From Mustelus asterias (taxonomy: Eukaryota): a stretch of DNA of 64,000 nt. Below, piece by piece: positions 1,765 to 63,769 of the stretch. The notes under the pieces were generated by a model. That model was not told where the DNA came from and ran no database searches. It worked only from the letters and a program-made list of their open reading frames with translations. Made by a program: the position numbers and the translations under genes. The first letter of the stretch is position 1. Each line of letters begins with the position of its first letter. The stretch spans positions 10,106,001 to 10,170,000 of the forward strand of contig NC_135830.1 in NCBI RefSeq assembly GCF_964213995.1. The letters run 5' to 3'.

Positions 1765-2390
1765 AGACACTACATATCTTGGACACCAAGGGACAAATTT
1801 ACCTAACCTGCACATCTTTGGGCTATGAGAGAAAAAACGGAGCACCCAGAGGAAGATTGTGCAAACTTCACACATGAGGTGGAGATGCCAACGCTGAACT
1901 GGGGTAAGCACAATAAGAAGCCTCACAACACAAGGTTAAAGACCAACAGGTTTATTTGGAACCACAAGCTTTCAGAGCGCTGATGAAGGAGCAGTGCTCT
2001 GAAAGCTCGTGATTCCAAATAACCAAAAGAGAAAATGCTGGAAAATCTCAGCAGGTTTGGCAACATCTGTAAGGACAAAAAAGAGCTGACATTTCGAGAC
2101 CAGATGACTCTTTGTCAAAGCTTTGACAAAGGGTCATGTGGATTCGAAGCATCAGCTCTTTTCTCTCCTGACAGATCCTGCCATATCTGCTGAGATTTTC
2201 CAGCAATTTCTCTTTTGGTCTCAAATTCCAGCATCCGCAGTCATTTGCTTTGATTCCAAATAAACTTATTGGACTTTAACCTGGTGTTATGAGACATCTT
2301 ACTGTGCAAACTCCACAGAGACAGTCACCCACCGCTGGAATCGAACCCAGACTCAGTGAGGCAGCAGTGCTAACCGCTGTGCCACAGTGA
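1765..2390 (-). mobile_element. HE1-type V-SINE interrupted by a Penelope-derived 3' fragment (~1875-2305), itself interrupted by a hairpin element (2023-2250)
   Basis: Three nested layers; duplicated GTGCAAACT(T/C)CACA at ~1859 and ~2304; TSD TGATTCCAAATAA at 2010-2022 and 2251-2263. Confidence 0.75.
2023..2250. mobile_element. Short hammerhead-bearing repeat (family 2), fold-back copy
   Basis: ~100-bp arms of an imperfect palindrome centred at 2120/2121 (TTTGTCAAAG|CTTTGACAAA); same family at 3015-3172, 3770-3870, 4270-4410, 37525-37630, 57928-58075. Confidence 0.7.
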
Positions 2391-3014: not shown

Positions 3015-3172
3015 TCAAAAACAGAAAGTGCTGGAAAACCTCAGCAGGTCTGACAGCATCTGTGATCATCCAGACCGGAAGCATTAACTCTATTCTCTCC
3101 ACAGTCGCTGAGATTTCCAGCATTTTCTGTTTCTGTTTCAGATTCCAGCACCCGCAGTATTTTGCTTTTATC
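3015..3172 (+). mobile_element. Family-2 short repeat with 5' inverted segment
   Basis: Ends GCTGAGATTTCCAGCATTTTCTG...CAGATTCCAGCA..GCAGT..TTTGCTTTT like the other family-2 copies; its 5' part is the reverse complement. Confidence 0.55.
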
Positions 3173-3769: not shown

Positions 3770-4410
3770 GCTTTTGTCAAAAGGGTCACCTGGACTCGAA
3801 ACCTCAGCTCTTTCTGTCTCCTTACAGATGCTGCCAGACCTGCTGAGATTTTCCAGCATTTTCTCTTTTGGCTGGAAATACTCAACAGGTCAGGCAGCCT
3901 CTGTGGAGAGAGAAACAGACTGAATGTGACCTGTCATCGGAACTGGGAAATATAATATTATTTCTCGCAACTAAAAGAGACACTTTACAGCCTTCAGAAC
4001 AAAACTGAGTCCAACAATTTTACACCACAATCTCTGTCCCCATTGTGTTCTGTGTTTCGTTGCTGCTTTTTTCACCTCATTTTCCTCGTGTTTTCTTTAC
4101 CTTACATTCAGACTATCGCTCACCGGCTATTCACAACTCATCCAGAACATCTTTTGTGTCTTTACTTGTCCCAGTACCACTCGCTTTGGTCTTGGGCCGT
4201 GAAACATTTTGTCAGTTTGCAGATCTTTCATTTTGTCTCCTCCACCTCCCTCTCTCAATTCTTCAGAGGTCAGTCTTTGGCAAAGGGTCATCTGGACTCG
4301 AAACGTCAGCACTTTTCTCTCCTGACAGATGCTGCCAGACCTGCTGAGATTTTCCAGCATTTTCTCTTTTGGTTTCAGATTCCACCATTCACTGTAATTT
4401 GTTTTTATCC
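3770..4410 (+). mobile_element. Two family-2 short repeat copies (3770-3870, 4270-4410)
   Basis: AAAGGGTCA(C/T)CTGGACTCGAAAC..CAGC...CAGATGCTGCCAGACCTGCTGAGATTTTCCAGCATTTTCTCTTTTGG in both. Confidence 0.65.
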
Positions 4411-9006: not shown

Positions 9007-10280
9007 TCAGTATAAACATAATTTATTTGGGATGCAATTAACAGCAGCAATAACAGCAGAATCACACCCCTGTGACCACTGGTGAACTCGCTGGTGTCTC
9101 ACCAGGTTGTATGACTGGGTGAATCTCTTTCCACACATTGAACAAGTGAACGGCTTCTCCTCACTGTGAACTTGTTGGTGTCTCAGCAGAATGGATGACC
9201 GGGTGAATCCTTTCCCACACTCAGTGCAGGTGAACGGTTTGTCCTCAGAGTGATTTCGCTGGTGTGCGAGCAGAAGTTTTCTGCTTTTAAAGCTCTTCTC
9301 ACAGTCAGAACATCTGAACGGTCTCTCATTTGTGTGAACAAGTTGGTGAGAAGTGAGAGAAGATAAACAAGTGAATCTCTTCCCACACGCAGGGCAGGTG
9401 AACGGCCTTTCCCCAGTGTGAATTCGCTGGTGTACAGTGAGGTCGCCTGATCGCCTGAAGCCAGTCCCGCAGTGAGAGCACGTGAATGTCTCTCGTCAGA
9501 GTGAACACGTTGATGGTGACGCAGTTCCTCAGAACTTTTATAGCCCTTCCCGCAGTCTGGACATTTAAACAGTCTCTCTTCACTGTGAACTCGTTGGTGT
9601 TTCTGCAGGTTGGATGATCGGTTAAATCCCTTCCCACATTCAGAGCAGGTGAATGGCCTCTCTCCAGTGTGAATGCGCTCATGTGCCACAAGGTGGAATG
9701 ATGTCCTGAACCCCTTCTGGCAGTGGGAGCAGCTGAACGGTGTGGAACCGGTGTGAATGTACTGGTGCTCCCGCAGTGTGCGTGTAGTTTTAAAACTCTT
9801 TCCACACTCAGTGCATTTAAACTCTCTCCTGTCGGTGTGAACTGGCTGGTGTCTCTGCAGGGCAGAGAAATCTGTGAATCCCTTCCCACACACGGAGCAG
9901 GTGAATGGCCTCTCCCCTGTGTGAATGTGCTGATGTATCAGCAGGGCCGATGACTGAATAAATCCTTTTCCACATTCGGAGCAGGTGAACTGCCTCTCCC
10001 TGCTGTGAATGCGCTGGTGAATCAACAGGCCAGCTGACTGAGTGAATCCCTTCCCACACACAGGGCAGGTAAAAGGTCTCTCTCCAATGTGAGTGCGTTG
10101 GTGATTTTGCAGGTCAACTGGATAATTGAATCCTTTCCCACAGTCTCCACATTTATACGGTTTCTCCCTGGTGTGACTGCGCTTGTGTCTCAACAGGCCA
10201 GATGATCGATTGAAGCCTTGTCCACATACAGAACACATGTACAGTGTCTCCTCTCTGTGAACGGTGCTTTTTTCTTCCAT
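9007..10280 (-). CDS. C2H2 zinc-finger protein (14 fingers; 1-nt frameshift at ~9488 after finger 9)
   Basis: Splice acceptor TTTTTCAG at 10387; ATG 10280 (MEEKSTVH); 9 fingers in frame. GAGAGACATTC lacks one C of GAGAGACCATTC. Five more fingers follow in the shifted frame, ending ...[18 protein letters not shown] (stop 9007-9009). Uncorrected ORF stops at 9183. Confidence 0.8.
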
Positions 10281-11639
10281 GTTCAAAGGCTGATGATGTT
10301 TAGATCCTGATGAATCAAAGCTCTCTGTCTGATCTTGATGTGATCCTTGATTTACAATTTTCTGGAATTCCTCACCTTCTAATCCGCTGAAAAATGAATT
10401 GAAAACAGAAAGAGGGAAACATGAGAGACAAGCCATAAATATACAAAGGCAAAATGTGAAATTCAGCTGAACTAATCTGGTAAACTGTGGAATTGGGACT
10501 AGGAAATAGTGGATATGAAAGCTGCTGGATTGTGACAAAGCCTCAAACTGTTTACCAATGCACTGAGGGAAAGGAACCCTCCACCTCTTCAGAGCCAACA
10601 ACAAGAATCCAGCCTTTATGCGTGAAGAGGGAGAGGTCGGGAGGAGGGTGACGGAGAGAGACTTTATACATCAGCAACTCAACCAGGATTTTGGCAGAGT
10701 CTCCTCAACCCACAATCTTCCCCACCTGGAAGTACCAGAGCAGTTGGGACATGGGAAAACCACACAACTCCCTGACTTGGACAAATATCACTGTCCGTTC
10801 AATGTGACTGGGTTAAAATTCTAATACTGTTGCATTGTGGGAGCACCTTTACTATATGGACTGCAGAGGTTCAAGAAGAAGGCCAACTATCACCATCACA
10901 AAGGACAATTGGTGATTGGTAACATATCGCTGTCTGTGATAGTAAATCAGGACAAATACCTGGGCCTTTTTTGTTCTTTTGCAAATCTGTATGAAACCTG
11001 CAATTTCATAAGATATAGGAGCAGAATTAGACCATTCGGACCCTCGAGTCCGCTCCGCCATTCAATCATGGCTGATATGCTTCTCATCCCCATTTTCCTG
11101 CCTTCTCCCCATAACCTTTCAACCCATAACCAATGAAAAATCTGTCCAACTCCTACTTAAATTACTCACTGCCCAGCATCCACCGCACTTTGGGGTAGCA
11201 AATTCCACAGATGAAAGGAAAACAAGGAAACAAAACCCATGACCGCTACAATCTAGGAGGACAAGGACAGTGGACAGGTGGGGAAAACCACTACCTGGAA
11301 GTCCCCCTCCAAACCACTCACCATCTTGACTTGGAAATATGTCACTGTTCCTTCACTGTCATTGGATCAAAATCCTGGAATTCCCTCCCTAACAGCACTA
11401 TGGCTGTACCTACACCACATGGATTGCAGTGATTCAAGAAGACAGCTCACCACCACCTTTTCAAGGGCAATAAATGCGAGTCTAGACAACGACTAGAATC
11501 CATTGAATGATTTTTAAAATGACTTGGAATATCCATGAGAAAACAATCCTGACAGTTACTCAAATAAATACTTCACTCAGTCACACCAGCTTCCGAGTTT
11601 ACATTTGACTGGAGTGGTTGGATTTTGCTGCTGTTTGTG

Positions 11640-13180: not shown

Positions 13181-14244
13181 TCCTAGCGAACTGGGCAACA
13201 GGTGTCTAAACAGTTTCACCCGCTCCCAGCCTGCAGCTGGTGTTTACAGGAGTCCATGAACCATGTACATATTCAGTGTGAGAGGTTGCAGTTCCTGAAG
13301 GAGCTGCTTCTCCACTTTTAGTTACACTTCTATTCTGCCCCACGCTCCTAATCATTGGCTTCCCATGTGGAGGACGCTTGGGAGGTCAGAGGATCTTTTC
13401 CTGGACCTGCTCTTGGGGCTGGTTAAAACAGTGATTTGTAGATCTGCATGGGGTAACTAGGTTGTCGGCCTCTCTCCCACGGTCTTGTCCATGCTCTTGT
13501 GGTCCTGGAGAAGAAGCGTGCAGTGTCGACTGGAACACTCGAAAACTCCACAACTCAGGGTACAGAGTGTCTCATAGACACTGGAAACAGAATTCTGGTT
13601 TAGTTGAGATGGAAGTTGATTGGACCACAAGATTGGGGAAACAAGAAACAAAAGAATATTCCATGGAAGCAAGAATTGTCTGTTCTGACTTTCTACCCTG
13701 TGCTGACAATGATACTGACTCTGTCAATGTCTTTTACAAGGTCCACGAGGGCGATGAATTGCAGATGGGAAACTGAAACCAAACATCACATCAAGATCTG
13801 ACAGAGTCACTCAATTCATCAGGACCTGAATATCATCGACCTTTAAATGTGGAAGGAGAAATGTTTTTCTGTTTTGGCGGTGCGGAAAGATTTCAAACAT
13901 CAGTGTGACTAGAAAAGCACCAAGACATACACACACACCTGGGTGAGAGTGTTCCAGTAAACTGACTGGAAAGAGCTTTAACCAGTTACACAGCCTGATT
14001 TTAAAATAATCTCACTATTCACAGCAGAGAGCCAAAGGATGAGAAGATCTTGGAGCAGAATTAGGCCATTGGGCCCATTGAGTCTGCTCCACTATTCACT
14101 GATCTGATATAATCCTGAACTCCACTTTCCTGCCTGATCCCCATGACTCTTGACTCTCTTACTGAGAAATAATACACAAGTTCTTTGTGTGGACAAGGCT
14201 TGAACAGATTGTTTAACCTGGAGAGACACAAGGACACCTGTACC

Positions 14245-15390
14245 ATGGAGAAACCATGGAAATGTGGGGACTGTGGGAAGGGATTCAGTTACCCATCGCT
14301 GCTGGAAATACATCGCCGCGGTCACACTGGGGAGAGACCATTCACCTGCTCCGTGTGCAGGAAAGGATTCATTCAGTCATCCCACCTGCTGACCCACCAG
14401 CAAGTTCACATTGAAGAGAGGCTTTTTAGCCACTCTGACAGCGATAACAACTCTAAAAGCTCTGAGGACCTGGTCAAGCACCAGATTGTTCACATTGCAA
14501 GACAGTTCAGTTGCTCCCACTGTGGGAAGCTGTTTAAACGATCACAGAACCTCATTGAACACGAACGCACTCACACTGGGGAGAGGCCATTCACCTGCTC
14601 TGTGTTTGGGAAGAGATTCACACGATCATCCCACCTCGCTACACACCGACTGGTTCACACTGATAACAGACCTTTCAAATGTTCCGAATGTGAGAAGAGT
14701 TATAAAACCACAAGTGATCTGCTGATACACCAGCGAGTTCACAATGAGGAGAGGCCATTCAGATGTACGGTGTGTGGGAAGGGATTCACTCTGTTATCCA
14801 GCCTCCAGAAACACCAGCGAGTTCACACTGGGGAGAGGTCGTTCACCTGCTCCTTGTGTGGAAAAGGATTCATTTATTTAACCAGCCTCAGATCACACCA
14901 ACTTGTTCACTCAGATAAGAAACCTTTCAAATGTTCTGAATGTGAGAAGAGCTTTAAGACCTCAAGTGTTCTGCTGAGGCACCAGCAAGTTCACTCCGGG
15001 GAGAGACCGTTCACCTGCTCCGACTGTGGAAAGGGATTCACTTGCTCATCCAACCTGCAAACACACCAGCACATTCACACCGGGGAGAAACCGTTCACTT
15101 GCTCTGAGTGTGGGAAGGGATTTTCTCACTCATCCCACCTGCAAACACACCAGCACATTCACACCGGGGAGAAACCGTTCACTTGCTCTGAATGCGGGAA
15201 GGGATTTTCTCACTCATCCCACCTGCTGAGACACCAACACACTCACAATGGAGAGAGACCGTTCACCTTCTCTGAGTGTGAGATGGGATTCACTCAGTCA
15301 ACCCATCTTCTAACACACCAGCAAATTGGCAAGTGTCTGGAGGAATTGGATTCTGCTGTTATTGCTGCTGTTAATCACATCCAGGACTGA
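14245..15390 (+). CDS. C2H2 zinc-finger protein (10 canonical + 3 degenerate fingers)
   Basis: Open frame from ACCATGG at 14245 (MEKPWKCGDCGK) with TGERP/TGEKP linkers; acceptor-like TTTTACAAG ~13740; upstream fingers decayed. Confidence 0.9.
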   Translation: MEKPWKCGDCGKGFSYPSLLEIHRRGHTGERPFTCSVCRKGFIQSSHLLTHQQVHIEERLFSHSDSDNNSKSSEDLVKHQIVHIARQFSCSHCGKLFKRSQNLIEHERTHTGERPFTCSVFGKRFTRSSHLATHRLVHTDNRPFKCSECEKSYKTTSDLLIHQRVHNEERPFRCTVCGKGFTLLSSLQKHQRVHTGERSFTCSLCGKGFIYLTSLRSHQLVHSDKKPFKCSECEKSFKTSSVLLRHQQVHSGERPFTCSDCGKGFTCSSNLQTHQHIHTGEKPFTCSECGKGFSHSSHLQTHQHIHTGEKPFTCSECGKGFSHSSHLLRHQHTHNGERPFTFSECEMGFTQSTHLLTHQQIGKCLEELDSAVIAAVNHIQD

Positions 15391-16084: not shown

Positions 16085-16650
16085 TTGGTATGGTACATTG
16101 GGGAAACCATGCAGACGCTACGACAACGGATGAATGAACACCGCTCGCCAATCACCAGGCAAGACTGTTCTCTTCCTGTGGGGGAGCACTTCAGCAGTCA
16201 CGGGCATTCAGCCTCTGATCTTCAGGTAAGCGTTCTCCAAGGCGGCCTTCACGACACACGACAGCGCAGAGTCGCTGAGCAGAAACTGATAGCCAAGTTC
16301 CGCACACATGAGGACGGCCTAAACCGGGATGTTGGATTTATGTCACGTTATCAGTAACCCCCACAGCTTGCCTCCTGGACTTGCAGGCTGTCCTGTCTGG
16401 AGACAATACACATCTCTTTAACCTGTGCTTAATGCTCCCTCCTCCCACATTGTCTGTATCTTTAAGATCTGGCTGGTTGTAGGGATTCGCATTCTAATCA
16501 GTATTCTGTAACTTGATTTTTGTGTCTATGTGCCCTGTTTGAGAGCACTTTTCCACTCCATCTGACGAAGGAGCAGCGCTCCGAAAGCTAATGGTATTTG
16601 CTACCAAATAAACCTGTTGGACTTTAACCTGGTGTTGTTAACACTCTTAC
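16085..16650 (+). mobile_element. Penelope-like element 3' fragment (GIY-YIG endonuclease C-terminal half + 3' repeat)
   Basis: WYIGETMQTLRQRMNEH...VGEHF...RRVAEQKLI..F.T..GLNRD, the PLE GIY-YIG signature; matches 25970-26545. Confidence 0.85.
16558..16594 (+). ncRNA. Minimal type I hammerhead ribozyme motif (PLE-associated)
   Basis: CCAT-CTGACGA-A-GGAGC agc GCTCC-GAAA-GCT-A-ATGG: intact core, stem II, palindromic AGCT stem III, stem I CCAT/ATGG. Confidence 0.7.
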
Positions 16651-20990: not shown

Positions 20991-21200
20991 AAATCAAGTT
21001 ACAGAATACAAATTAGAATGCGAATCTAATTAGATTCGCATTCTAATTAGTATTCTGTAACTTGATTTCTGTGTCTGTGCACTGTTTGAGAGCAGATATC
21101 CACTCCATCTGACGAAGGAGCAGTGCTCCGAAAGCTTATGGTATTTGCTACCAAATAAACCTGTTGGACTTTAACCTGGTGTTGTGAGACTTCTTACTGT
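20991..21200 (+). mobile_element. Penelope-like 3' repeat fragment with 5' fold-back
   Basis: Matches 16483-16650; 20991-21068 is an inverted repeat centred on CTAATTAG. Confidence 0.8.
21105..21141 (+). ncRNA. Minimal type I hammerhead ribozyme motif
   Basis: CCAT-CTGACGA-A-GGAGC agt GCTCC-GAAA-GCT-T-ATGG. Confidence 0.7.
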
Positions 21201-22843: not shown

Positions 22844-22888
22844 CCACACAAGCTTTCGAGGCTCTGAGCCCCTTCTTCAGGTGAGTGG
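22844..22888 (-). ncRNA. Minimal type I hammerhead ribozyme motif (left arm)
   Basis: Reverse complement of 23517-23561. Confidence 0.65.
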
Positions 22889-23516: not shown

Positions 23517-23561
23517 CCACTCACCTGAAGAAGGGGCTCAGAGCCTCGAAAGCTTGTGTGG
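23517..23561 (+). ncRNA. Minimal type I hammerhead ribozyme motif (right arm)
   Basis: CAC-CTGAAGA-A-GGGGCT cag AGCCTC-GAAA-GCT-T-GTG: stem I CAC/GTG and a different stem II covary relative to the 16558 copy. Confidence 0.7.
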
Positions 23562-23843: not shown

Positions 23844-25067
23844 TTAACTGATTGAATCCCTTGTCCCACACGGAGCAGGTGAACATGCTTCCTCAGTGAG
23901 AGTGCACGGGTGTTTTAGCAGGCTGGATGACAGTGAATCCCTTCCCACACTCAAATCAGAGGAATGGCCTCCCACCAGTGTGAACCCGCAGGTGTTCAGT
24001 GATTTGGGATGAAGTAGTGAATCAGTTCCCAGATGAAGAGCAGCTGAACAGCCTCTCTCAGTGTGAGTGGTTTGGTGTCTCTGCAGATTCCCTGCACTTT
24101 TAAAGCTCTTTCCACAGTCAGAGCATTTAAACGGTCTCTTATCAGTGTGAACAAGCTGATGGTTGCTGAGCTGTGATGACTGAGTGACTCTCTTCCCACA
24201 CACAGAGCAAGCAAACGGCCTCTCCCCTGTGTGAAGAGGCTGGTGTTTCATCAGTTCATTTCTGCTTTTAAACCTCTTCCCACAGTCAGAACATTTACAG
24301 GGTCTGTCATCGGAGTGAACAATTTTGTGTCTTCTGAGGTAGGATAAACATGTGAATCCCTTGCCACATAGGGAGCAGGTGAAAGGTTTCTCCCCAGTGT
24401 GAAGACTCTGGTGTTCACTGAGGTGAGATGTTGTAGTGAATCTCTTCCCACACTCAGCGCAGGTGAATGGTCTCTCTCCAGTGTGGATGCGCTGGTGTCT
24501 AAGAAGATGGGATGATTTAACAAATCCTTTCCCACAAAAGGAGCAAACAAACGGTCTCTCCCCAGTGTGAACACGCTTGTGTTCAGTGAGGGTGGAATAC
24601 TGCCTGAAATGCTTCCCACACTGAGAGCAGCTGAATGGTCTCTCCCCAGTGTGAACACGCTTGTGTTCAGTGAGGTGGGAAGCACAAGTGAATCCCTTCC
24701 CACACATGGAGCAGGTGAAGGGGTTCTCCCCAGTGTGAACACGGAGGTGTTCAGTGAGGTGAGATACTTGCCTGAAGTTCTTCCCACATTGAGAGCAATT
24801 GAATGGTCTCTCACCAGTGTGAACCCGTTGATGGTGAATTAAACCTTCAGAACTCTTAAAACTGTTCCCACAGTCAGAGCATTTAAACGGTCTGTCCTCA
24901 GTGTGAACTCGCTGGTGTGACACCAGGCTAAATGACTGAGCGAATCCTTTACCACACATACAGCAGATGAATGGTCTCTCCCCAGTGTGACTGCGTCGAT
25001 GAATTTCCAGCTGAGATGGGGTTGTACATACTTTTCCACAGTCTTCACATTTCCACTGTTTCTCCAT
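23844..25067 (-). CDS. C2H2 zinc-finger protein (12 intact fingers; frameshift ~24058 into a decayed 3' array)
   Basis: ACCATGG start at 25067 ([12 protein letters not shown]); acceptor TTTTGCAG at 25427; degenerate fingers continue to ~23630 and again at ~22260-22380. Confidence 0.85.
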   Translation of the reverse strand: MEKQWKCEDCGKVCTTPSQLEIHRRSHTGERPFICCMCGKGFAQSFSLVSHQRVHTEDRPFKCSDCGNSFKSSEGLIHHQRVHTGERPFNCSQCGKNFRQVSHLTEHLRVHTGENPFTCSMCGKGFTCASHLTEHKRVHTGERPFSCSQCGKHFRQYSTLTEHKRVHTGERPFVCSFCGKGFVKSSHLLRHQRIHTGERPFTCAECGKRFTTTSHLSEHQSLHTGEKPFTCSLCGKGFTCLSYLRRHKIVHSDDRPCKCSDCGKRFKSRNELMKHQPLHTGERPFACSVCGKRVTQSSQLSNHQLVHTDKRPFKCSDCGKSFKSAGNLQRHQTTHTERGCSAALHLGTDSLLHPKSLNTCGFTLVGGHSSDLSVGRDSLSSSLLKHPCTLTEEACSPAPCGTRDSIS

Positions 25068-25661
25068 GGTGCTGGTGTCTTTGTGTCTCTCCAGGTTGGA
25101 TGATCTGTTAAATCCTTGTCCACACAGAACACGTGTACGGTTTCACCTGACAGTGAATGGTGTGATGTTTTTCAGGCTGCGTAACTGGGTAAAGCTCTTT
25201 CCACAGTCAGTTCACTGGAACACTCTCACTCCAGTGTGTGCATGTGTCTCGATGCTTCTCCAGTCACACTGATGTTTGAAATATTTTCCCACAGGCAGAA
25301 CAAACATTTTTCCTTCCACATTCAAAGGCTAATTGAGTTTAGGTGCTGATAAATCGAATGATTGTAAAATATTCGTATGAAATTTGATTTGAGTTTCCAG
25401 TCTGTAAATCTTCCCCTTCAAATATCCTGCAAAAGAAGATAACAAAACTACTGTCAGTCCAGGATAGAAATTCTGAACAGCCAATTCTAGTTTCTCTGGA
25501 ACATTTTTTCCGCTTGTTCCCCCAAACCTGTAAATCCCCGTTCCACACACACTCCCTCCTCCCTGGGCTGAAATCCAAACCCATCTCATCATCTCCAACA
25601 TTCTTTTCCTCCATTCCCAGTTTTCTCCCTCCCTCCCTCTCCTCTGTCTGGATTCAGTTCT

Positions 25662-31945: not shown

Positions 31946-32158
31946 GACGTAATTCTTTGTAAACTTATTTTACAGGAAATAGAAGAGGAGGATTTGCAGT
32001 CTGGACAATCAAATCTCACGTCAGACAGAGTCAATCAATTCATTGGGATTTGAAGATTTGTGCATCTGAAGGGATTTAATTGACCATCTCAGTTGGAAAC
32101 TGGTGAGAATCCGTTTCCTTGCTCCTCCTGTGGGAAGGGATTGATACAGCTGGAAAAC

Positions 32159-33364
32159 ATGCTGACACGACAGCGAACTCGCAATAGTGAGAGTTCATTC
32201 ACCTGCTCCGTGTGTGGGAAGAAATTCATGTGTTCGTCCAACCTGCTGGCTCACCAACTCGATCACATTATTCAGAAGCCTCTTCAAAGCTCTGACTCTG
32301 GGGAAAGCATTGAAACCTCTGAGGAACAGGCCCAACACCAGCTCCTTCACACACATGAGAGACCGTTCAGCTGCTCTCACTGCGGGAAGAGGTTCAGCCA
32401 GTCCTCCCGCCTTGCAGAGCACCAGCTCTTTCACACACACGAGAGACCGTTCAGCTGCTCTCACTGTGGAGAGTCGTTCAGCGACTCAGTGCATCTCACT
32501 GAGCACCAACAAGTTCACACCAAGGACAGGCCATTCAGCTGCTCCCAGTGTGGGAAGAGATTCACTCAGTCCTCCCACTGCACCGTTCACCAACAGATTC
32601 ATTTTCAGAAGAGACATTTTAAATGCTTTAAATGTGAGAAGACCTTCAAAAGAAGGATTAGTCTGCTGAGACACCAGGGCACTCACACTGGGGAGAGGCC
32701 ATACGTTTGCCCTGTGTGTGGGAAAACATTTACTTGTTTGCAGCATCTGCTGAGTCACCGGCCTATTCACACCGGGGAGAAGGCATTCATCTGCTCCGTG
32801 TGTGGGAAGGCTTTCACGGAGTCATCCAGCCTCCGGAGACACCGGCGCATTCACACAGGGGAGAGGCCGTTCTCCTGCTCCATTTGCGGCAAAGGATTTG
32901 CTCAGTTTTCCTCCTGCAATCAACACCAACACATTCACTCTGATAAGAGACCTTTTCAATGCTCAGAATGCAATAAGACCTTTAAAAGAAGTGATGATCT
33001 GCTGAAACACAAACGCATTCACATCGGGGAGAGGCCGTTCCTGTGCTCTGTGTGTGGAAAGGGATTCGCTCAGTCGTCTGGCCTGCTGAGACACCAACGC
33101 ATTCACACCGGGGAGAAGCCGTTCACCTGCTCTGTGTGTGGGAAGGGATTCACTGATTCATCCTATATGCTGAAACACCAGCGAGCTCACACTGCGACAG
33201 AACCGTTCACCTGCTCCCTGTGTGGGAAGGGATTCACTGATCCATCCCACCTGCAGAGACACCAGCGAGTTCACACTGGGACAAAACCTTTCAACTGCTC
33301 CATGTGTGGGAAGGGATTTAATCAGTATTACAGCCTGCTGAAACATAGACGACGTCATGTGTGA
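32159..33364 (+). CDS. C2H2 zinc-finger protein (13 canonical fingers plus degenerate N-terminal fingers)
   Basis: Uninterrupted ORF; acceptor TTTTACAG at 31975; in-frame TGA at ~32081 precedes the first ATG (32159). Confidence 0.9.
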   Translation: MLTRQRTRNSESSFTCSVCGKKFMCSSNLLAHQLDHIIQKPLQSSDSGESIETSEEQAQHQLLHTHERPFSCSHCGKRFSQSSRLAEHQLFHTHERPFSCSHCGESFSDSVHLTEHQQVHTKDRPFSCSQCGKRFTQSSHCTVHQQIHFQKRHFKCFKCEKTFKRRISLLRHQGTHTGERPYVCPVCGKTFTCLQHLLSHRPIHTGEKAFICSVCGKAFTESSSLRRHRRIHTGERPFSCSICGKGFAQFSSCNQHQHIHSDKRPFQCSECNKTFKRSDDLLKHKRIHIGERPFLCSVCGKGFAQSSGLLRHQRIHTGEKPFTCSVCGKGFTDSSYMLKHQRAHTATEPFTCSLCGKGFTDPSHLQRHQRVHTGTKPFNCSMCGKGFNQYYSLLKHRRRHV

Positions 33365-37198: not shown

Positions 37199-37630
37199 CC
37201 TACATTCTCCCTGTATCTGTGTGGGTTACCTCCAGGTACTCTTGTTTCCTCCCACACTCCAAAAATGTGCAGATTAGATTGATTGGCCATGCTAAATTGG
37301 CCCTTAGTGTCGGGGATTAGCAGGATATCTACATGGGTGGACTGGGTGGGATCACTGTTGGTATAAACTCAATGGCCTCCTGCACTGTAGGGATTCTAAA
37401 CCGTCTGTACTATCATTACATTGGATCCAATACTGTGTTCACTAACACACTGCAGCCTGACTCTTATATTATTGGAACAAACACTGTGTTTGTTACACTC
37501 AGAGTCAGTCAATCCAAAGTAAATCAAGCCAATCCATGACGAAGGGTCATCCAGACTTGAAGCGTTGGCTGGAATCCCTCTCCACAGTTGCTGTCAGACC
37601 TGCTGAGGTTTTGCAGCATTTTCTGATTTG

Positions 37631-37965
37631 AAGTCAGTGCTTTGCTGTGTTGTCTCTGTGCTCCATCCCCACTCTGATTGTATTGGAGCCTGTGTGTGTC
37701 ATTGTTACACTCAGAGTAAGTCAGTGCTTTGCTGTGTTGTCTCTGTGCTCCATCCCCACTCTGATTGTATTGGAGCCTGTGTGTGTCATTGTTACACTCA
37801 GAGTAAGTCAGTGCTTTGCTGTGTTGTCTCTGTGCTCCATCCCCACTCTGATTGTATTGGAGCCTGTGTGTGTCATTGTTACACTCAGAGTAAGTCAGTG
37901 CTTTGCTGTGTTGTCTCTGTGCTCCATCCCCACTCTGATTGTATTGGAGTCTGTGTGTCATTGTG
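37631..37965. repeat. Minisatellite, 87-bp unit x~4
   Basis: AAGTCAGTGCTTTGCTGTGTTGTCTC recurs with an 87-bp period (29-aa repeats in ORF track). Confidence 0.95.
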
Positions 37966-38009
37966 ACACTGAGACTCTGTCACTGTGATTATTGGACAAG
38001 CAGCAAGTC

Positions 38010-38425: not shown

Positions 38426-38599
38426 GGGGTATTATTGTCATTAAGTGGGAGGGGCTTGTTCCCCATTGTTCAGAATGGAGACAACTTGTCCATCAAACTG
38501 CATCAACCCTCTGAGTCCCAATGTCTTATTGATGAGGCAGAGCGGTGGCAGAGAAGGAAAGAAAGGGAAATAGCTTTGACAAAGGGTCATCTGGCTGTA

Positions 38600-45815: not shown

Positions 45816-46320
45816 TTTTTTTTGAAAATAGATTCAGTTTTCCCAGATTAAAATGGAGGAAATGTCTAACCCAGAGATGGAGAGACTTTTCAGGGAATCA
45901 AAGGATTCGGGGGAGGGGGTGGCAAATTGGAGATAAAACCAAGATTAGCCACAATTGTAGTGAATGATGGAGCAGGCTCAGTGGAGCTTATGGTTTCCTC
46001 CTGCTCCTATTTCATACATTCTTATAGAGGCCAGAGTTTTGTGTAGACTCAGACCAAGTGGCAGGTTTCCTCCCCTGAAGGACATCAGTGAACCAGTTGG
46101 GGCTTTCGACCATCCAGCAGCTTTCATGGTTGCTTTTTCCTGGTGCCAGACCCACAAATTACCAGATTCATTCAGTTCAATTTCACAAGCTGCCTTTGTG
46201 GACTCTCTCTCACTCCCTTTTCTCTGTTTTACGTCAATTCACAGAGCTTTAGAAGGAAAGGATTTTCAGTTGGAAAAATCAGACATCACATCAGGATCTG
46301 AATATCATCGGATTTTTAAC

Positions 46321-47358
46321 ATGCAAGAAAATAGCAATGTTCACAATGTGGAGAACTTGTGGAAATCTGCGGACTGTGAGCAGGGATTCAGATCCCCGTC
46401 TGAGCTGGAAACTCATCAGCTCAGCGACACTGGGGAGAAGCCATTCACCTGCCCTGAATGTGGGAAGGGATTCACTCGATCATCCATTTTCCAGACACAC
46501 CATCGCACACACACTGGGGAGAGACCATTCAGCTGTCCTGAGTGTGGGAAGGGATTCACTCGATCATCTGGGTTGCAACAACACCAGCGAGTTCACACTG
46601 GGGAGAGGCCGTTCACCTGCTCCAAGTGTGGGAAGGGATTCACTGGTTCATCAACTCTGCTGAAACACCAACGAGTTCACACTGATGAGAGACCATTTAA
46701 ATGTCCAGACTGTGGGAAGTGCTACAAGATTTCCTGGGAACTGTTACGCCATCAACGAGTTCACACCGATGAGAAACTGTTCAGGTGTTCTCACTGTGGG
46801 ACTGGGTTCAGACAATCATCTGAACTCATTGTACACCAGCGAATTCACACTGGGGAGAGACCATTCGCCTGCCCTGAATGTGGGAAGGGATTCACTCGAT
46901 CATCAGGCCTGGTACAACACAGTCGAGTTCACACTGGGGAGAGGCCATTCACCTGCTCCAAGTGTGGGAAGGGATTCGGCGATTCATCCACTCTGCTGAA
47001 ACACCAGCAAGTTCACACTGATGAGAGACCTTTTAAATGCGCTGACTGTGAGAAGTGTTATAAAAGTTCCCGGGAACTGATGCGCCATCAACTTGTTCAC
47101 ACTGACAAGAGACCATTTAAATGTCCAGAATGTGGGAAGTGCTACAAAAGTTCTGGGGAACTGATGCGCCATCAACGTGTTCACACTGAGGAGAGACCGT
47201 TCAGGTGCTCTCACTGTGGGAATGGGTTCAGGCAATCATGTCACCTCACTGTACACCAGCAAGTTCACACGGGGGAGAGACCATTCACCTGCTTAGTGTG
47301 TGGGAAGAGATTCACTCGGTTGTCTACCCTGACAAGTCACCAGCGAGTTCACAAATAA
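46321..47358 (+). CDS. C2H2 zinc-finger protein (11 canonical fingers)
   Basis: Acceptor AATTCACAG at 46244; ATG 46321 (MQENSNVH); intact array ending HQRVHK*. Confidence 0.9.
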
Positions 47359-49478: not shown

Positions 49479-49500
49479 GTCTCTGTGGTGCAATTGGTCG

Positions 49501-49535
<35 letters not shown>

Positions 49536-49552
49536 GAGGCTCCCCAGGGACG
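49479..49552 (+). tRNA. tRNA-Asn(GTT): tRNA-Asn(GTT) copy, probably a pseudogene/retrocopy
   Basis: GTCTCTGTGGTGCAATTGGTCGGCGCGTTCGGCTGTTAACCGAAAGGTTGGTGGTTCGAGGCTCCCCAGGGACG; acceptor and anticodon arms match vertebrate tRNA-Asn; T-stem has a mismatch and a wobble. Confidence 0.85.
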
Positions 49553-51870: not shown

Positions 51871-53864
51871 CTGGACCAGTTACCAACTCTCCCGGGTTGG
51901 ACTGGAGTCTCCAGGAATTTTTTTATTCATTCAGAGAATGTTGGAGTCGCTGGCTGGACCAGTATTTATTGCCCATCCCTATTTGTCCTTCAACTGAGTG
52001 GCTTGCTAGACCATGTCACAGGGCATTTTAAGTGTCAACCACATAAAATCATAGAAACCCTACAGTGCAGAAAGAGGCCATTTGGCCCATCGAGTCTGCA
52101 CCGACCACAATCCCACCCAGGCCCTACCCCCATATCCCTACATATTTACCCGCTAATCCCTCTAACCTACGCATCTCAGTGGTTTGGAGTCATATTTAGG
52201 CCAGACCAGATAAGGATGGGAGATTTGTTTCCCAATGCATCCAGGGAATGTGGCTGCTACTGGCTGGGCCAGCATTTATTGCCCATCTTTATTTGCCCTT
52301 GAACTGAGTGCACTTCAGAGGGCATTTTAAGAGTCAACCAACCACACTGCTGTGGATCTGGAATCACATATAGACCTGACCAGGTCAGGCAGCAGATTTC
52401 CTTGACTCAAGGACATTAGTGAATCAGTTGGCTTTTTACAACAATCGACAATGTTTCATGGTCATCATTAGACTTTCAATTCCAGATATTTATTGAATTC
52501 AAATTTCACCATCTGCTGTAGTGGGATTCAAACCTCAGTCTCTAAAACATTCAGGACATTAAAAAAGATATCTTTTGTTGTCATTTTCCATTGAACATTT
52601 CTCTTCACCGGATATAAAAATATTGAAAATGGATAAAAGTTGTTTGCCTAACTATCAATCATTATGCTATAGGGTGAGGAGTCTTTTTTGCTTTCCAATT
52701 GGCCCAGGAAGGCAGTGGGGAAGGATGTGTTGACTGATTAGTGGTTGGAGGATGGGCACAATAGAAAAGACGTGGTAAAACTTCCAGGAAACATTTAATC
52801 ACAATTGGCAACTCGGAGGAGAGAATGTTGTGAATTTCTATCCTGGACTGACTGTGATGGTTTCTGTAAATTTACAGGGTGCTGGAAGTAGAGAATTGAC
52901 AGACAGGAAACTCAAATCAAACATCACATCGTGATCTGATGGAGTCACGCAATACATCAGAACCTGAATATCAGCAGCATCTGAATGTGGAAGGTAACAG
53001 GTTTGTCGGTTCTGTCTGTGAGAGAAGATTTTGGATTTCAGTGTGACTGGAAAGGCCCCGAGATTCACAAACCCTGGTTAGACCACACCGGGAGAACTGT
53101 GCTCAGTTCCGGGCAACAGGACATAATGGCCTTGGAGAGGGTGTAGAACGATGTACCTGAGTGATATCTGAACTCCCAGGGTTAAATTAGGTGAGATTAC
53201 AGGAAAATGTCATTCTGACATTTTCCTGTAATCAGATGAGGCCATTCAGCCCATTGGGTCCATGCGAGCTGTCTAGAGCAATCCAGTCAGTCCCATTCCC
53301 CTGCTCTCTCCTCATATCTTTGCAGCTTTATTTTCCTTACGTGTCTATCCAATGTCCGTTTAAAATTATTCATTGTGTCCATCTCCACCCCACTCATTGG
53401 CAGCAAGTTTCAGGTCATTACCACTTGCTGTGTAAAAGCATTCTTCCTCACATCTCCTGTGCCTTTTATATGCAAATTAGGAGCAGGAGCAGGCCACTTG
53501 TTCCCTCGAGTCTGCTCCAGCCTGTGGCTGGTTAAATTTTAACCTCAACTTCACATTCCTGCCTACTCCCAATAACCTTCCACCCCCTTGCTTATCAAGA
53601 ATCTATCCAGTTCTGCCTTAAAGATATTCAAGGACTCTGCCTCAACCACTTTTTCCGAGAACCGGACCCACACATTACCAGATTCATTCAGCTCAATTTC
53701 ACAATCTGCCTTTGTGTTTTAATGGTTTTCTCTCACTCCCTTTTTTTGTGTTTTAGATCAATTTCACAGGGGAATTGCAGTCCAGAAGCTCGAACAAAAG
53801 ATAACATCAGTATTGGACAGAGTCGCTCAATTTATTCTGAACTGAATATCATCAGATTTTAAAC

Positions 53865-54987
53865 ATGGAAGGAAAAAGCACCGTTCACAGTGGAGAGAAG
53901 CCGTACACATGTTGTGTGTGTGCACAAGGCTTCAGCCAATCACCTGGCCTGTCAAACCACAAGTGCAGTCAAACTAAGGAGAAACCATGGAAATGTGAGG
54001 ACTGTGGGAAAGGATTCATTTCCCCGTCCAAGCTGGAAACACATCGCCGCAGCCACACTGGGGAGAGGCCTTTCGCCTGTTGTGTGTGTGGGAAGGGATT
54101 CATTCAGTTATCCGACCTTTCCAAACACCAGCGAGTTCACTCCAGCGAGAGACCATTCACCTGCTCCGAGTGTGGGAAAGGATTCAGTATTTCAGCCGAA
54201 CTGTTGAGTCACCAGCGAGTTCACACTGACGAAAGACCTTTTAAATGTCCAGCCTGTGGGAGGTGTTTTAAAAGTTCTGGGGTACTGATGTCCCATCAAC
54301 GTCTTCACACTGATGAGAAACCGTTCATGTGCTCTCACTGTGGGACTGGGTTCAGACGATCATCTCAACTCATTGTACATCAGCGAGTTCACACAGGGGA
54401 GAGACCATTCAGGTGCTCTCACTGTGGGACTGGGTTCAGGCGATCATCTGTGCTCACTGTACATCAGTGAATTCACACTGGGGAGAGGCCGTTCACCTGC
54501 TCCAACTGTGGGAAGGGATTCACCCAGTCATCAGACCTGCTGAAACACCAGCGAATCCACTCTGGGGAAAGGCTGTTTACCTGCTCTGTGTGTGGGAAAG
54601 GATTCACTCAGTCATCTGGCCTGCTGAAACATCAGAGAGTTCACTCTGCGGTGAGGCCATTCACCTGCTGTGAGTGTGGGAAGGGATTTACTACATCAAC
54701 CATTCTGCTGAACACACCAGCGAGTTCACAATGACGAGAGACCTTTTAAATGCCCAGACTGTGGGAAGTGCTATAAAAGTTCTGGGGAACTGATGTTCCA
54801 TCAACGTATTCACACTGAGGAGAGACCATTCAGGTGCTCTCACTGTGGGACTGGGTTCAGGCAATCTTCTCAACTCACTGTACACCAGAGAATTCACACC
54901 GGGGAGAGACCATTCACTTGCTCTGAATGTGGGAAGAGATTCATGACTTCATTGCACCTGCTCAGACACCAGAGACTTCACAAGTAA
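53865..54987 (+). pseudogene. C2H2 ZNF gene with nonsense codon (54468-54470) and +1 frameshift (~54711); may yield a truncated 201-aa product
   Basis: [14 protein letters not shown] start; CAG TGA ATT CAC in place of HQRIH; CTGCTGAACACACCAG has an extra A; array ends HQRLHK* at 54987. Confidence 0.8.
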
Positions 54988-57732: not shown

Positions 57733-57927
57733 TCACTAATCCTCCCCCTCCCCATTCTGAGACCCACACCCGAAGCAGGATGAACCGAAGAGGCCGGGAG
57801 GTGAATCGATAACCTCGAGGTGAGTGAGGAAACAGTCAGTGTGAGTTTGATGCTGCTGTGAAGAATGTGTCATGTCTTTTCACTGATTCTGTAACTGTGG
57901 AAATAAAGAGTTTCAGCAAAATGGGAT

Positions 57928-58075
57928 AAAAGCAAATTACTGCGGATGCTGGAATCTGAAACCAAAAGAGAAAAAGGTTTGTCAAAGGGTCATCCAGACT
58001 CGAAACATCAGCTCTTTTCTCTCCTGACAGATGCTGCTAGACCTGCTGAGATTTTCCAGTGTTTTCTCTATTGCT
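57928..58075. mobile_element. Family-2 short repeat with inverted 5' piece
   Basis: AAAGCAAATTACTGCGGATGCTGGAATCTGAAACCAAAAGAG (reverse 3' end) joined to TTTGTCAAAGGGTCATCCAGACTCGAAACATCAGCTC. Confidence 0.65.
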
Positions 58076-61408: not shown

Positions 61409-62248
61409 TCACAACTTGTGAATTCGCTGGTGCGTCAGAAGATTCGATGAGGTAACGTATCCCTTCCCACACTGCAAGCAGGTGAATGGCCTCTCCCCAG
61501 TGTGAACCCGCTGATGTATTGCTAGTTTAGACGTCTGATTGAATCCCTTCTCACACACAGAGCAGATGAATGGCCTCTCCTCTGTGTGGATTCGCTGGTG
61601 TATTGCTCGGTTGGATGAGTGATTGAATCCTTTCCCACACACAGAGCAGATGAATGGTTTCTCCCCAGTGTGAACTCGCTGGTGTGTCAGCAGAGTTGAT
61701 GACCGACTGAATCCTTTCCCACACACAGAGCAGGTGAATGGCCTCTCCCCAGTGTGAATTCGCTGGTGTGTGAACAAGGTGGCTGACTGAGCAAATCCCT
61801 TTCCACACTGGGAACAGGTGAATGGCCTCTCCCCAGTGTGAACTCGCTGGTGTTTCAATAAAGTAGATGAGTCAGCAAATCCCTTCCCACACTGGGAGCA
61901 AGTGAATGGCCTCTCCTGAGTGTGAGTTCGCTGGTGTATCAGCAGAGTGGATGAGTGAGAAAATCTCTTCCCACATTCAGAGCAGGTGAACGGTTTCACC
62001 CCAGTGTGAACACGCTGGTGTATTGCTAGGTTGGATGACTGATTGAATCCCTTCCCACATTGGGAGCAGGTAAACGGCCTCTCCTCAGCATGAGTCCTCT
62101 GGTGTATATGTAAGCTGGATAACTGAGTGAATCCCTTCCCACACTGAGAGCAAGTGAATGGCCTCTCCCCAGTGTGACTGCGTCGATGAGTTTCCAGCAG
62201 GGATGGGTAATTGAATTCCTTCCCACAATCCTCACACTTCCATGCCAT
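61409..62248 (-). CDS. C2H2 zinc-finger protein (10 fingers)
   Basis: Intact [15 protein letters not shown]...HQRIHKL*; acceptor TTTCACAG at 62473; upstream finger carries a stop. Confidence 0.9.
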
Positions 62249-63769
62249 CTCCCTGTTGTGACTGCAATTATGTTTCCAAAGGCCAGATGATTGGTTGAAG
62301 TCTTATCCACAAACAGAACACATGTACAGTTTCTCTCCACTGTGAACGGTGCTTTTTTCTTCCAATTTCAAAATACAATGATATTCAGGTTACAGTAAAT
62401 TGGCCGACTCATCAGATTCTGATATCATGTTTTGTTTCAGTTTCTCAACTGCAAATCTTCTTCTTGTAAACCCTGTGAAATTGATTTAAAACAGAAAAAA
62501 GTGAGTGAGAAAGAACCCACAAAAACACAAAGGTGGGTTGTGGAATTGAGCTGAATGCATCTGCTAATTTGTGGGGCCGCGGTGAGGAAAGGGTAACCAA
62601 GAAAGCTGCTGGATTGTCATACAAACCCAGCTGGTTCACTGATATCCTTCAGGGAATGAAACCTGCCAGAAGGTCTGGGTCTACACAAGACTTTGGGAGG
62701 AGATAGAGAGAAGTAGGAGTGGCCGGGGTGAAGGCAAGGGATTTTATACATCTACAACTTGACAAGAACTTTGACAGAATCTCACAAACCCTCAACTCCA
62801 CCAACTCGAAGGACCAAGATAGCAGATGGATATAAACACCATCACCTCCGAGTTCCTCCAACCCACACACCATCCTGACTTATCTGACTTCCAGTACTAA
62901 ACGAACAGAAATTTATTTCATATAAATACTGGGAAGACTGAACCCACTGTCTTCAGTCCCCTCTCCAAACTCCACTCCCTCGCCAACAACTCTATCCCTC
63001 TTCCTGGCAACATGTCTGACCTGAACCAGGCTGTTCACAATCCTGGTGAAATATTTCACCCAAAGATGAGCTTCCAGCCACATATCCAGATCATCATCAC
63101 TATTTCCATCTCAGTGACATCGCCCGACTCCACCCCAGTCTCAGCTCATCTGGAATTCTCATCCATTCCATTGTGATGTGAAACTCAGGGGAATGGGAAT
63201 ATAGAGGGGGAATGGGACTGGCTGAATTGCTCCAAAGAGGGTTGGCATGGATTTGAGTTGCCAAATGGATTCCTTCTATGTTGTAATGTCTCCATCAGTG
63301 GAAATAGGTAACGTTGACACAGTGCCTTTTATATATCAAGACAAGAAATAGGGAATCATAAATAACATAGCACGTACCATATAACTACATTAAACATATC
63401 TCTGTCCCAAGCGAATTTACTGTTCATTTAAACTGCCTTCTCCTGGGAAAACTCCCCCTTTAATTGTGAACATTAGGTAAGAGGCTATCCTATTAGCCAG
63501 ATAAATAGGTGCGACATCCTGAGGGAGTCAAAAGATGTCAATATCTTTGAGAGAGAAAGAAAAATATACCTGGGTCTCGTCCTGCTCCTAATGCCCGATG
63601 TTCGTCTGTAATAGTTCCAGTCTGCAGCCTCCCTAAATTCACTTCCTCTCCCTTCAGTTGCTGCAAGTGCCCAATTTCCCCCAGAATGAGAAAAGAAATG
63701 GAAAGGGGGAAACATTGATTTCCTCCCAGATGTTACACAGAGGAGGGAGTTTCACTCTGAAAATCATCA

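Follow-up and report, generated by a model that had tools for sequence, protein, structure and literature searches.

A likely Neptune-type Penelope-like element from Mustelus asterias and the putative U3-A8 hammerhead of its terminal repeat

The short repeat that recurs along a 64,000-nucleotide stretch of the Mustelus asterias genome (10,106,001-10,170,000 of NC_135830.1, hereafter the window) is probably best explained as the terminal repeat of a Penelope-like element (PLE) encoding a reverse transcriptase (RT) and a GIY-YIG domain, likely of the Neptune clade, whose master would have had a U3-A8 pair in its minimal type I hammerhead; the window copies are likely dead stumps and were likely copied from uncut RNA. 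Two sister subfamilies were distinguished: subfamily A (about 10,000 copies), with U3-A8, a GUC site and an A-U pair at the stem I base, and subfamily B (about 7,000 copies), with C3-G8, a GUU site, a G-U pair at the stem I base, a GGCU stem I and different tail letters. Genome-wide counts were made over the 3.68-Gb assembly. The U3-A8 variant and the element class are both already known.

The family majority was taken from 91 subfamily A copies chosen by tail pattern alone from the first 11.5 Mb of contig 1 (the tail-picked copies). It has stem I AGCU/AGCU, an extra A after A9, stem II GGGUC/GACUC, GAAA, a palindromic ACGU in place of stem III and a GUC site, and thus contains every part of the type I layout proposed in an earlier note on this DNA. 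Subfamily A agrees with the descriptor published for minimal PLE hammerheads (PMC4209133) and fits the core N3-U4-G5-A6-N7-N8-A9, G12-A13-A14-A15.1 and U16.1-H17 with a Watson-Crick 3-8 pair; stem I has 4 bp, stem II has 5 bp starting with G10.1-C11.1, and the extra base lies between 9 and 10.1. The ACGU palindrome is found in both subfamilies and would allow a dimeric stem III. The 35-nt motif has two window matches at up to 3 mismatches, against none in 100 shuffles. An Rfam search of the window with E up to 10 gave 21 matches, none to a hammerhead family; as the Rfam models lack this minimal form, this result was not counted as contrary evidence.

Predicted folding gives stem II a pair probability of 0.94-0.95, and a competing hairpin from the quasi-palindromic core was rejected (pair probability 0.00). 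Monomer folding energies are no better than those of shuffles (z 0.7 to -1.4) and were not taken as support, and the monomer is predicted to favour an inactive pairing of the core GAC with the GUC, equally so in subfamily B. For the dimer, the double-hammerhead fold of subfamily A was calculated at -14.9 kcal/mol against a minimum of -23.2 (about 8 kcal/mol higher), and that of subfamily B at -13.5 against -23.0 kcal/mol. Self-cleavage of the putative subfamily A ribozyme is plausible. Dimer cleavage of PLE hammerhead variants was reportedly addressed by Lunse in 2017, and 3-8 exchanges are said to have been addressed by Przybilski in 2007.

The copies of the family in the window, with the features that adjoin the head-to-head pair, are as follows.

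1901..2022, unstranded: older stump of a different repeat family whose own C3-G8 minimal hammerhead lies at about 1976-2012
2011..2022, plus strand: left copy of a 12-bp target-site duplication, identical to 2252-2263
2023..2251, unstranded: paired insertion of two subfamily A terminal-repeat stumps head to head (self-inverted match 2022-2218, 85%), the left arm ending at the short tail site and the right at the long one, with borders from the target duplication
2084..2122, minus strand: minimal hammerhead of the left arm, core UUGACAA at 2118-2112, predicted cut after 2088
2119..2122, unstranded: palindromic AGCT common to both arms, at the centre of the pair; its A is the commonest family 5' end
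2119..2157, plus strand: minimal hammerhead of the right arm, read from the sequence
2252..2263, plus strand: right copy of the 12-bp target-site duplication, identical to 2011-2022
3774..3871, plus strand: subfamily A stump with core TTGTCAA and an extra A
4273..4410, plus strand: subfamily A stump with A6>G, within a segmental duplication
37532..37630, plus strand: sister subfamily B stump with G8, a GUU site and a GGCU stem I, assigned by diagnostic letters
38572..38594, plus strand: 23-nt subfamily A remnant with AGCT, the core and the left half of stem II
57922..58073, unstranded: subfamily A insertion with an inverted tail remnant (57922-57973) and a plus-strand arm with a TTGTCAA core

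The plus-strand hammerhead of the right arm comprises stem I at 2119-2122/2154-2157, the core UUGACAA at 2123-2129 and stem II within 2131-2145, with a predicted cut site after 2153; it is predicted to be dead because of A14>G and G16.2>A. The minus-strand hammerhead of the left arm keeps all 11 invariant core bases, with a U-U in stem II and C15.2>U. The pair sits in the tail of the older stump at 1901..2022, whose sequence resumes after 2263 and whose own hammerhead has the stem pattern of the GGAGC families. The earlier note had placed TTGACAA at 2123-2129 (plus), 2112-2118 (minus) and 38576-38582, as the sequence confirms, the last being on the plus strand, and had found no mutation-free copy in the window; every window copy is indeed damaged. 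Its reading of the copy at 37536 as a family member that keeps G8 holds for the base and not for the membership, since the GUU site, the GGCU stem I and the different tail letters place this copy in the C3-G8 subfamily B. At the stump at 4273..4410, TTGACAA was found in 27 of the 30 best-matching loci, and many small contigs carry duplicates of the segment around 4276.

The window also contains C3-G8 minimal hammerheads of other families at 1980-2005, 16562-16587, 21109-21134, 22853-22880 and 23525-23552, with GGAGC or GGGGC in stem II, an AGCU palindrome and family-specific stem I pairs. A fold-back stump of a B-like family that has lost the catalytic core lies at 3018-3171, and an 87-nt unit in tandem array occupies 37630-37980, directly after the subfamily B stump. 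Clustered C2H2 zinc-finger reading frames occur at 9183-10670, 14173-15390, 23844-25142, 32084-33364, 45964-47358, 53841-54470 and 61409-62302, and a tRNA-like sequence at 49479-49552 on the plus strand (Rfam RF00005, 45 bits), with its right arm disrupted, is probably a pseudogene.

Exact patterns in which stem II and GAAAC were fixed and only the letters at 3 and 8 were varied matched 4,527 times genome-wide for U3-A8, 2,171 for C3-G8, 749 for C3-A8 and 183 for U3-G8, with no genome-wide match of a reversed control pattern for any of the four. The mixed forms inspected were mostly point changes of subfamily A or of subfamily B. Among the tail-picked copies with a complete core (n = 75), 67 have U3-A8, 3 have C3-A8, 2 have U3-G8, 3 have other combinations and none has C3-G8, from which the swap, as judged from these genomic copies, is already present in the master element and is not decay. 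The co-occurrence of U3 and A8 in the master that the earlier note anticipated is thus upheld, and the outcome that it had set against itself, a CTGACGA consensus with independent decay at the two positions, was not found. In contigs of three other organisms, pieces of the hammerhead stretch number in the tens of thousands, and among the matches listed for them no alternative letter reaches 10% at U3 or A8, under an 85% likeness filter that may exclude subfamily B. Every other hammerhead family seen in the 1.04 Mb of DNA fetched is C3-G8, so U3-A8 is probably the derived state. The swap is a single evolutionary event, so these large counts do not amount to independent covariation; an initial DNA search, which returned mostly paralogues of one segmental duplication, was also left out of the covariation analysis because these are not independent insertions. 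The prediction that CUGANGA-only searches would miss the motif is borne out; a descriptor that insists on CUGANGA passes over subfamily A, which is the larger one.

Its continuity with coding sequence marks the repeat as the terminal repeat of a PLE that codes for RT and GIY-YIG, which gives substance to the Penelope link suggested earlier. The motif lies about 370 nt behind the end of the GIY-YIG gene, with untranslated sequence in between, the next reading frame starts about 170 nt past its first base, and longer copies reach upstream into the end of the GIY-YIG gene. Pfam RVT_1 and GIY-YIG were matched in single reading frames of natural copies, RT then GIY-YIG, with E-values of 1e-6 to 3e-3 that fall under the gathering cut-offs, a level to be expected of copies in decay; in one Pfam comparison a single protein of the three had no match. 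The motifs DKG, CX4CxxC linker and CCHH, read directly against definitions in the available text of PMC8557442, make Neptune the likely clade, an assignment by motifs alone and with no tree, for which the linker is not decisive since it is common to Neptune and Nematis. Among copies picked by coding DNA, U3 and A8 occur together in 28 of 28 (of 30, the query locus and one motif-less copy being left out) and, in a second set, in 28 of 30 (the 3' core was unreadable at 10 of 40 loci), figures that show linkage and not frequency because the queries were A-type.

Two loci (L170, L171) are continuous from the motif into the reading frame, and in another (L173), a partial tandem with deletions, 2,985 nt separate two motifs. 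No intact reading frame was found among the fetched copies, all of which are broken. Two pyrimidine-run-plus-AG sites follow the ribozyme at L170:2576-2710, one ahead of a 22-codon upstream frame and one just ahead of the putative start codon. Two exact motifs 3.2 kb apart on contig 1 (L433) resembled a full element and proved to be two separate stumps. At L434:450-540 on the minus strand (G000:C1:9671988-9672054), two U3-A8 hammerheads stand in direct tandem 39 nt apart, a naturally occurring double hammerhead that probably stems from a template jump.

The 5' ends of the tail-picked copies fall exactly at the A of AGCT, 4 nt before U3, in 29 of 91 cases and within 4 nt of the AGCT start in 47; 50 of the 91 are short copies that start in the AGCT region. 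Their 3' ends form two clusters (tail sites) about 36 nt apart, and at L170 the tail between the two is predicted to form a long hairpin. A TATAAAT lies 30 nt before the A of AGCT in both subfamilies, across a spacer that has diverged, and in the three other organisms the AGCT place tops the loose 5' ends listed. From these DNA ends we infer a transcription start at the A of AGCT. The core lies 5' of the cut and is retained by the stumps, which were therefore likely copied from uncut templates. Exact head-to-head junctions centred on AGCT number 400 genome-wide, and target duplications of 7-16 bp were found at 42 of 77 rows, some rows being the two arms of one insertion.

Evidence of cleavage was sought in the ends and in the pattern of change. 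Only one of the 91 tail-picked copies ends at the cut site, at an inverted junction, and genome-wide junctions are start-to-start in 400 cases, start-to-cut in 56 and exactly cut-to-cut in none, the last with a longer pattern. Subfamily A sequences without C17 before the cut-site AGCT number 302; of 30 inspected, 8 are true ends at that site, each of them an inverted junction and none direct. At the adjacent position on each side, true ends were 1 of 30 among 429, with 2 further deletions, and 3 of 30 among 265. Cut-site ends therefore make up roughly 100 of the approximately 10,000 subfamily A copies (at most about 1%), a three- to fourfold excess over the neighbours that can be explained by AGCT microhomology. 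In subfamily B, about 5 of 30 inspected among 240 are cut-site ends, some of them direct and with no neighbour control, a share of its approximately 7,000 copies similar to that in A. Between the subfamilies 6 of 39 ribozyme positions differ (3, 8, two loop bases, 17 and 1.1), all six compatibly with the fold, whereas random substitutions keep it in 0.2-1.7% of trials. The ribozyme differs more than the tail (about 10 of 125), and the case for selection accordingly rests on pattern only. Non-CpG changes affect 25 of 828 letters in the core and 91 of 2,491 in the tail; the core decays like the tail, with no sign of selection after insertion.

We propose that RNA polymerase II would start at the A of AGCT, making the hammerhead the first 39 nt of the transcript, and that the element's protein would use the tail sites to prime reverse transcription. 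A promoterless stump of 105-140 nt would result from the first tail, and long, 5'-truncated copies from the tail of the next repeat. Mirror pairs would arise from two cDNAs, one per cut target strand, which likely anneal via their palindromic AGCT ends. A lone hammerhead could not close stem III (2-nt loop) and would likely not cut; in a tandem transcript two hammerheads about 3.2 kb apart could pair through ACGU and cut slowly, probably with the assistance of protein. The unit-length RNA so released could circularise and be copied into promoter-keeping partial tandems, and selection for this route would have preserved the fold while C3-G8 gave way to U3-A8, most likely by deamination of the CpG at G8 followed by C3>U in compensation. 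For the Anolis element, the accessible text of PMC11167929 describes internal tail-site priming, extension on both strands, protein-assisted cleavage and the use of unprocessed RNA.

It is unlikely, in our judgement, that the same element transposed without cleavage, with a vestigial subfamily A ribozyme and a merely inherited fold. In that case G8>A would come from CpG deamination and C3>U from templated repair of the near-palindrome at 2121-2131, which is near-perfect because the core is U3-A8; indeed, no single change in subfamily B is more frequent than C3-A8 (749 against 2,171), the subfamily A core is quasi-palindromic and its strand-flipped form TTGTCAA appears in 3 of the 75 complete-core tail-picked copies. 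Other points in its favour are that no direct 5' end at the cut site was seen among the subfamily A ends inspected, that ribozyme-dead mutants of the Anolis element still insert in vitro, as stated in the available part of PMC11167929, and that Naiad elements are described without canonical hammerheads in the available part of PMC8557442. The other four differences between A and B nevertheless spare the fold too, including the change from G-U to A-U in stem I and from U to C at 17; 3-8 covariants, U3-A8 ribozymes among them, are stated to be active in vitro in the accessible text of PMC3088659; and the similarly small footprint of subfamily B means that a weak footprint is not special to U3-A8.

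The earlier note had seen in the repeat a non-autonomous, retrozyme-like family, which would have a short master of its own that the ribozyme cuts to unit length before circularisation and mobilisation in trans. The shortness and lack of coding sequence of most copies (50 of 91 start at the AGCT region) speak for it, as does the proposal that animal retrozymes derive from such terminal repeats (10.64898/2026.07.22.740005, available part). We nonetheless consider this reading very improbable, as the family is continuous with RT and GIY-YIG, the majority letter is identical between short (50) and long (15) copies at every compared column, and no tandem arrays of 150-450 nt units were found among 60 loci from one contig, where a same-strand neighbour occurs at 2 loci (at irregular distance and 81-83% identity) and an adjacent inverted arm at 25. 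The copies also start before the core and not at the cut, and the stumps lack the TATA box, with the caveat that some could stem from transcripts of truncated copies that keep a promoter. Still less probable, to the point that we give it little credence, is that the common 5' end is a splicing product or a reverse transcriptase stop at the stem I base: a pyrimidine run and AG resembling a splice acceptor precede the core in both subfamilies, and an intron of Drosophila virilis Penelope ends at stem I (PMC4209133, available text), yet the direct (non-inverted) stumps mostly retain AG, or at least its G, and abut target DNA, with duplications, and not a shared exon, the TATA spacing is conserved, and long copies read through the same structure.

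Within the favoured reading of a PLE terminal repeat with a U3-A8 master hammerhead, the ribozyme might act as a cap switch, a scheme that is conceivable and that we hold to be doubtful. As the first 39 nt of a TATA-driven transcript it would stay inactive in short RNAs, the source of the promoterless stumps and mirror pairs that number in the tens of thousands, and would cut only on pairing with a second copy 3.2 kb downstream, removing a capped 35-nt leader and freeing a circularisable unit as the sole route to new promoter-bearing masters. If so, the A/B pair would be a natural compensatory-mutation experiment in a vertebrate, and selection on cleavage would persist though almost no inserted copy was cut. 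PLE hammerheads are described as slow in vitro and as dispensable for insertion in one reconstituted system (PMC4209133 and PMC11167929, as far as the available texts go). The reason why PLEs keep hammerheads is not settled by this family, which offers a clean pair for testing: two subfamilies, sisters within a single genome, with thousands of copies each, that differ by U3-A8 or C3-G8 and four fold-preserving bases. The family also suggests a ribozyme at the very start of a transcript.

Natural U3-A8 hammerheads have been reported (PMC3088659, available part), and among PLEs they are known from Cercyon of Schistosoma mansoni, with about 1,300 hits (Cervera and de la Pena 2014, PMC4209133, available part). 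The supplement PDF of the latter contains U3-A8 rows and no shark entry, and in a partial coverage of the literature, outside Repbase and Dfam, we found no paper on the variant in cartilaginous fishes; the accessible portion of 10.64898/2026.07.22.740005 indicates that one cartilaginous fish was sampled there, and that work may list related families. As far as the available text of PMC4209133 describes it, the minimal hammerhead of Cercyon shares with ours the type I layout, short stem I, extra base at 9/10.1, G10.1-C11.1, U3-A8, palindromic 15.2-16.2 without loop 3, and an occurrence mostly as single motifs from truncated elements with some close inverted pairs. Unlike Cercyon so described, the family here has a vertebrate host, a Neptune-type element, a stem II of 5 bp as against 7-8 bp, a C3-G8 sister subfamily in the same genome and a motif at the putative transcription start.

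The element resembles the C-terminal EN+ elements of the Neptune or Nematis clade, as presented in the available part of PMC8557442, in having RT then GIY-YIG in one frame, DKG, a CX2-5CxxC linker and CCHH, as well as partial tandems, inverted 5'-truncated copies and a one-sided tail of 30-40 bp; it differs in that no microsatellite targeting is evident in the flanks printed. With PAc (Poseidon, Anolis carolinensis; Frangieh et al. 2024, PMC11167929, accessible text) it has in common a terminal-repeat hammerhead, two genomic 3' ends that define the tail and copies of unprocessed RNA. PAc is described there as cut inside the reading frame with a C3-G8 core, whereas the cut here would lie about 135 nt before the putative start codon, and the linker zinc finger present here is, in the part of the literature available, absent from Poseidon. 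Metazoan non-LTR retrozymes, as characterised in the accessible parts of PMC7229834 and 10.64898/2026.07.22.740005, likewise carry a type I hammerhead, are kin to PLE terminal repeats and are dimer-dependent in vertebrates; they are tandem units of 150-450 nt, whereas the family described here is dispersed, inverted and continuous with a coding element.
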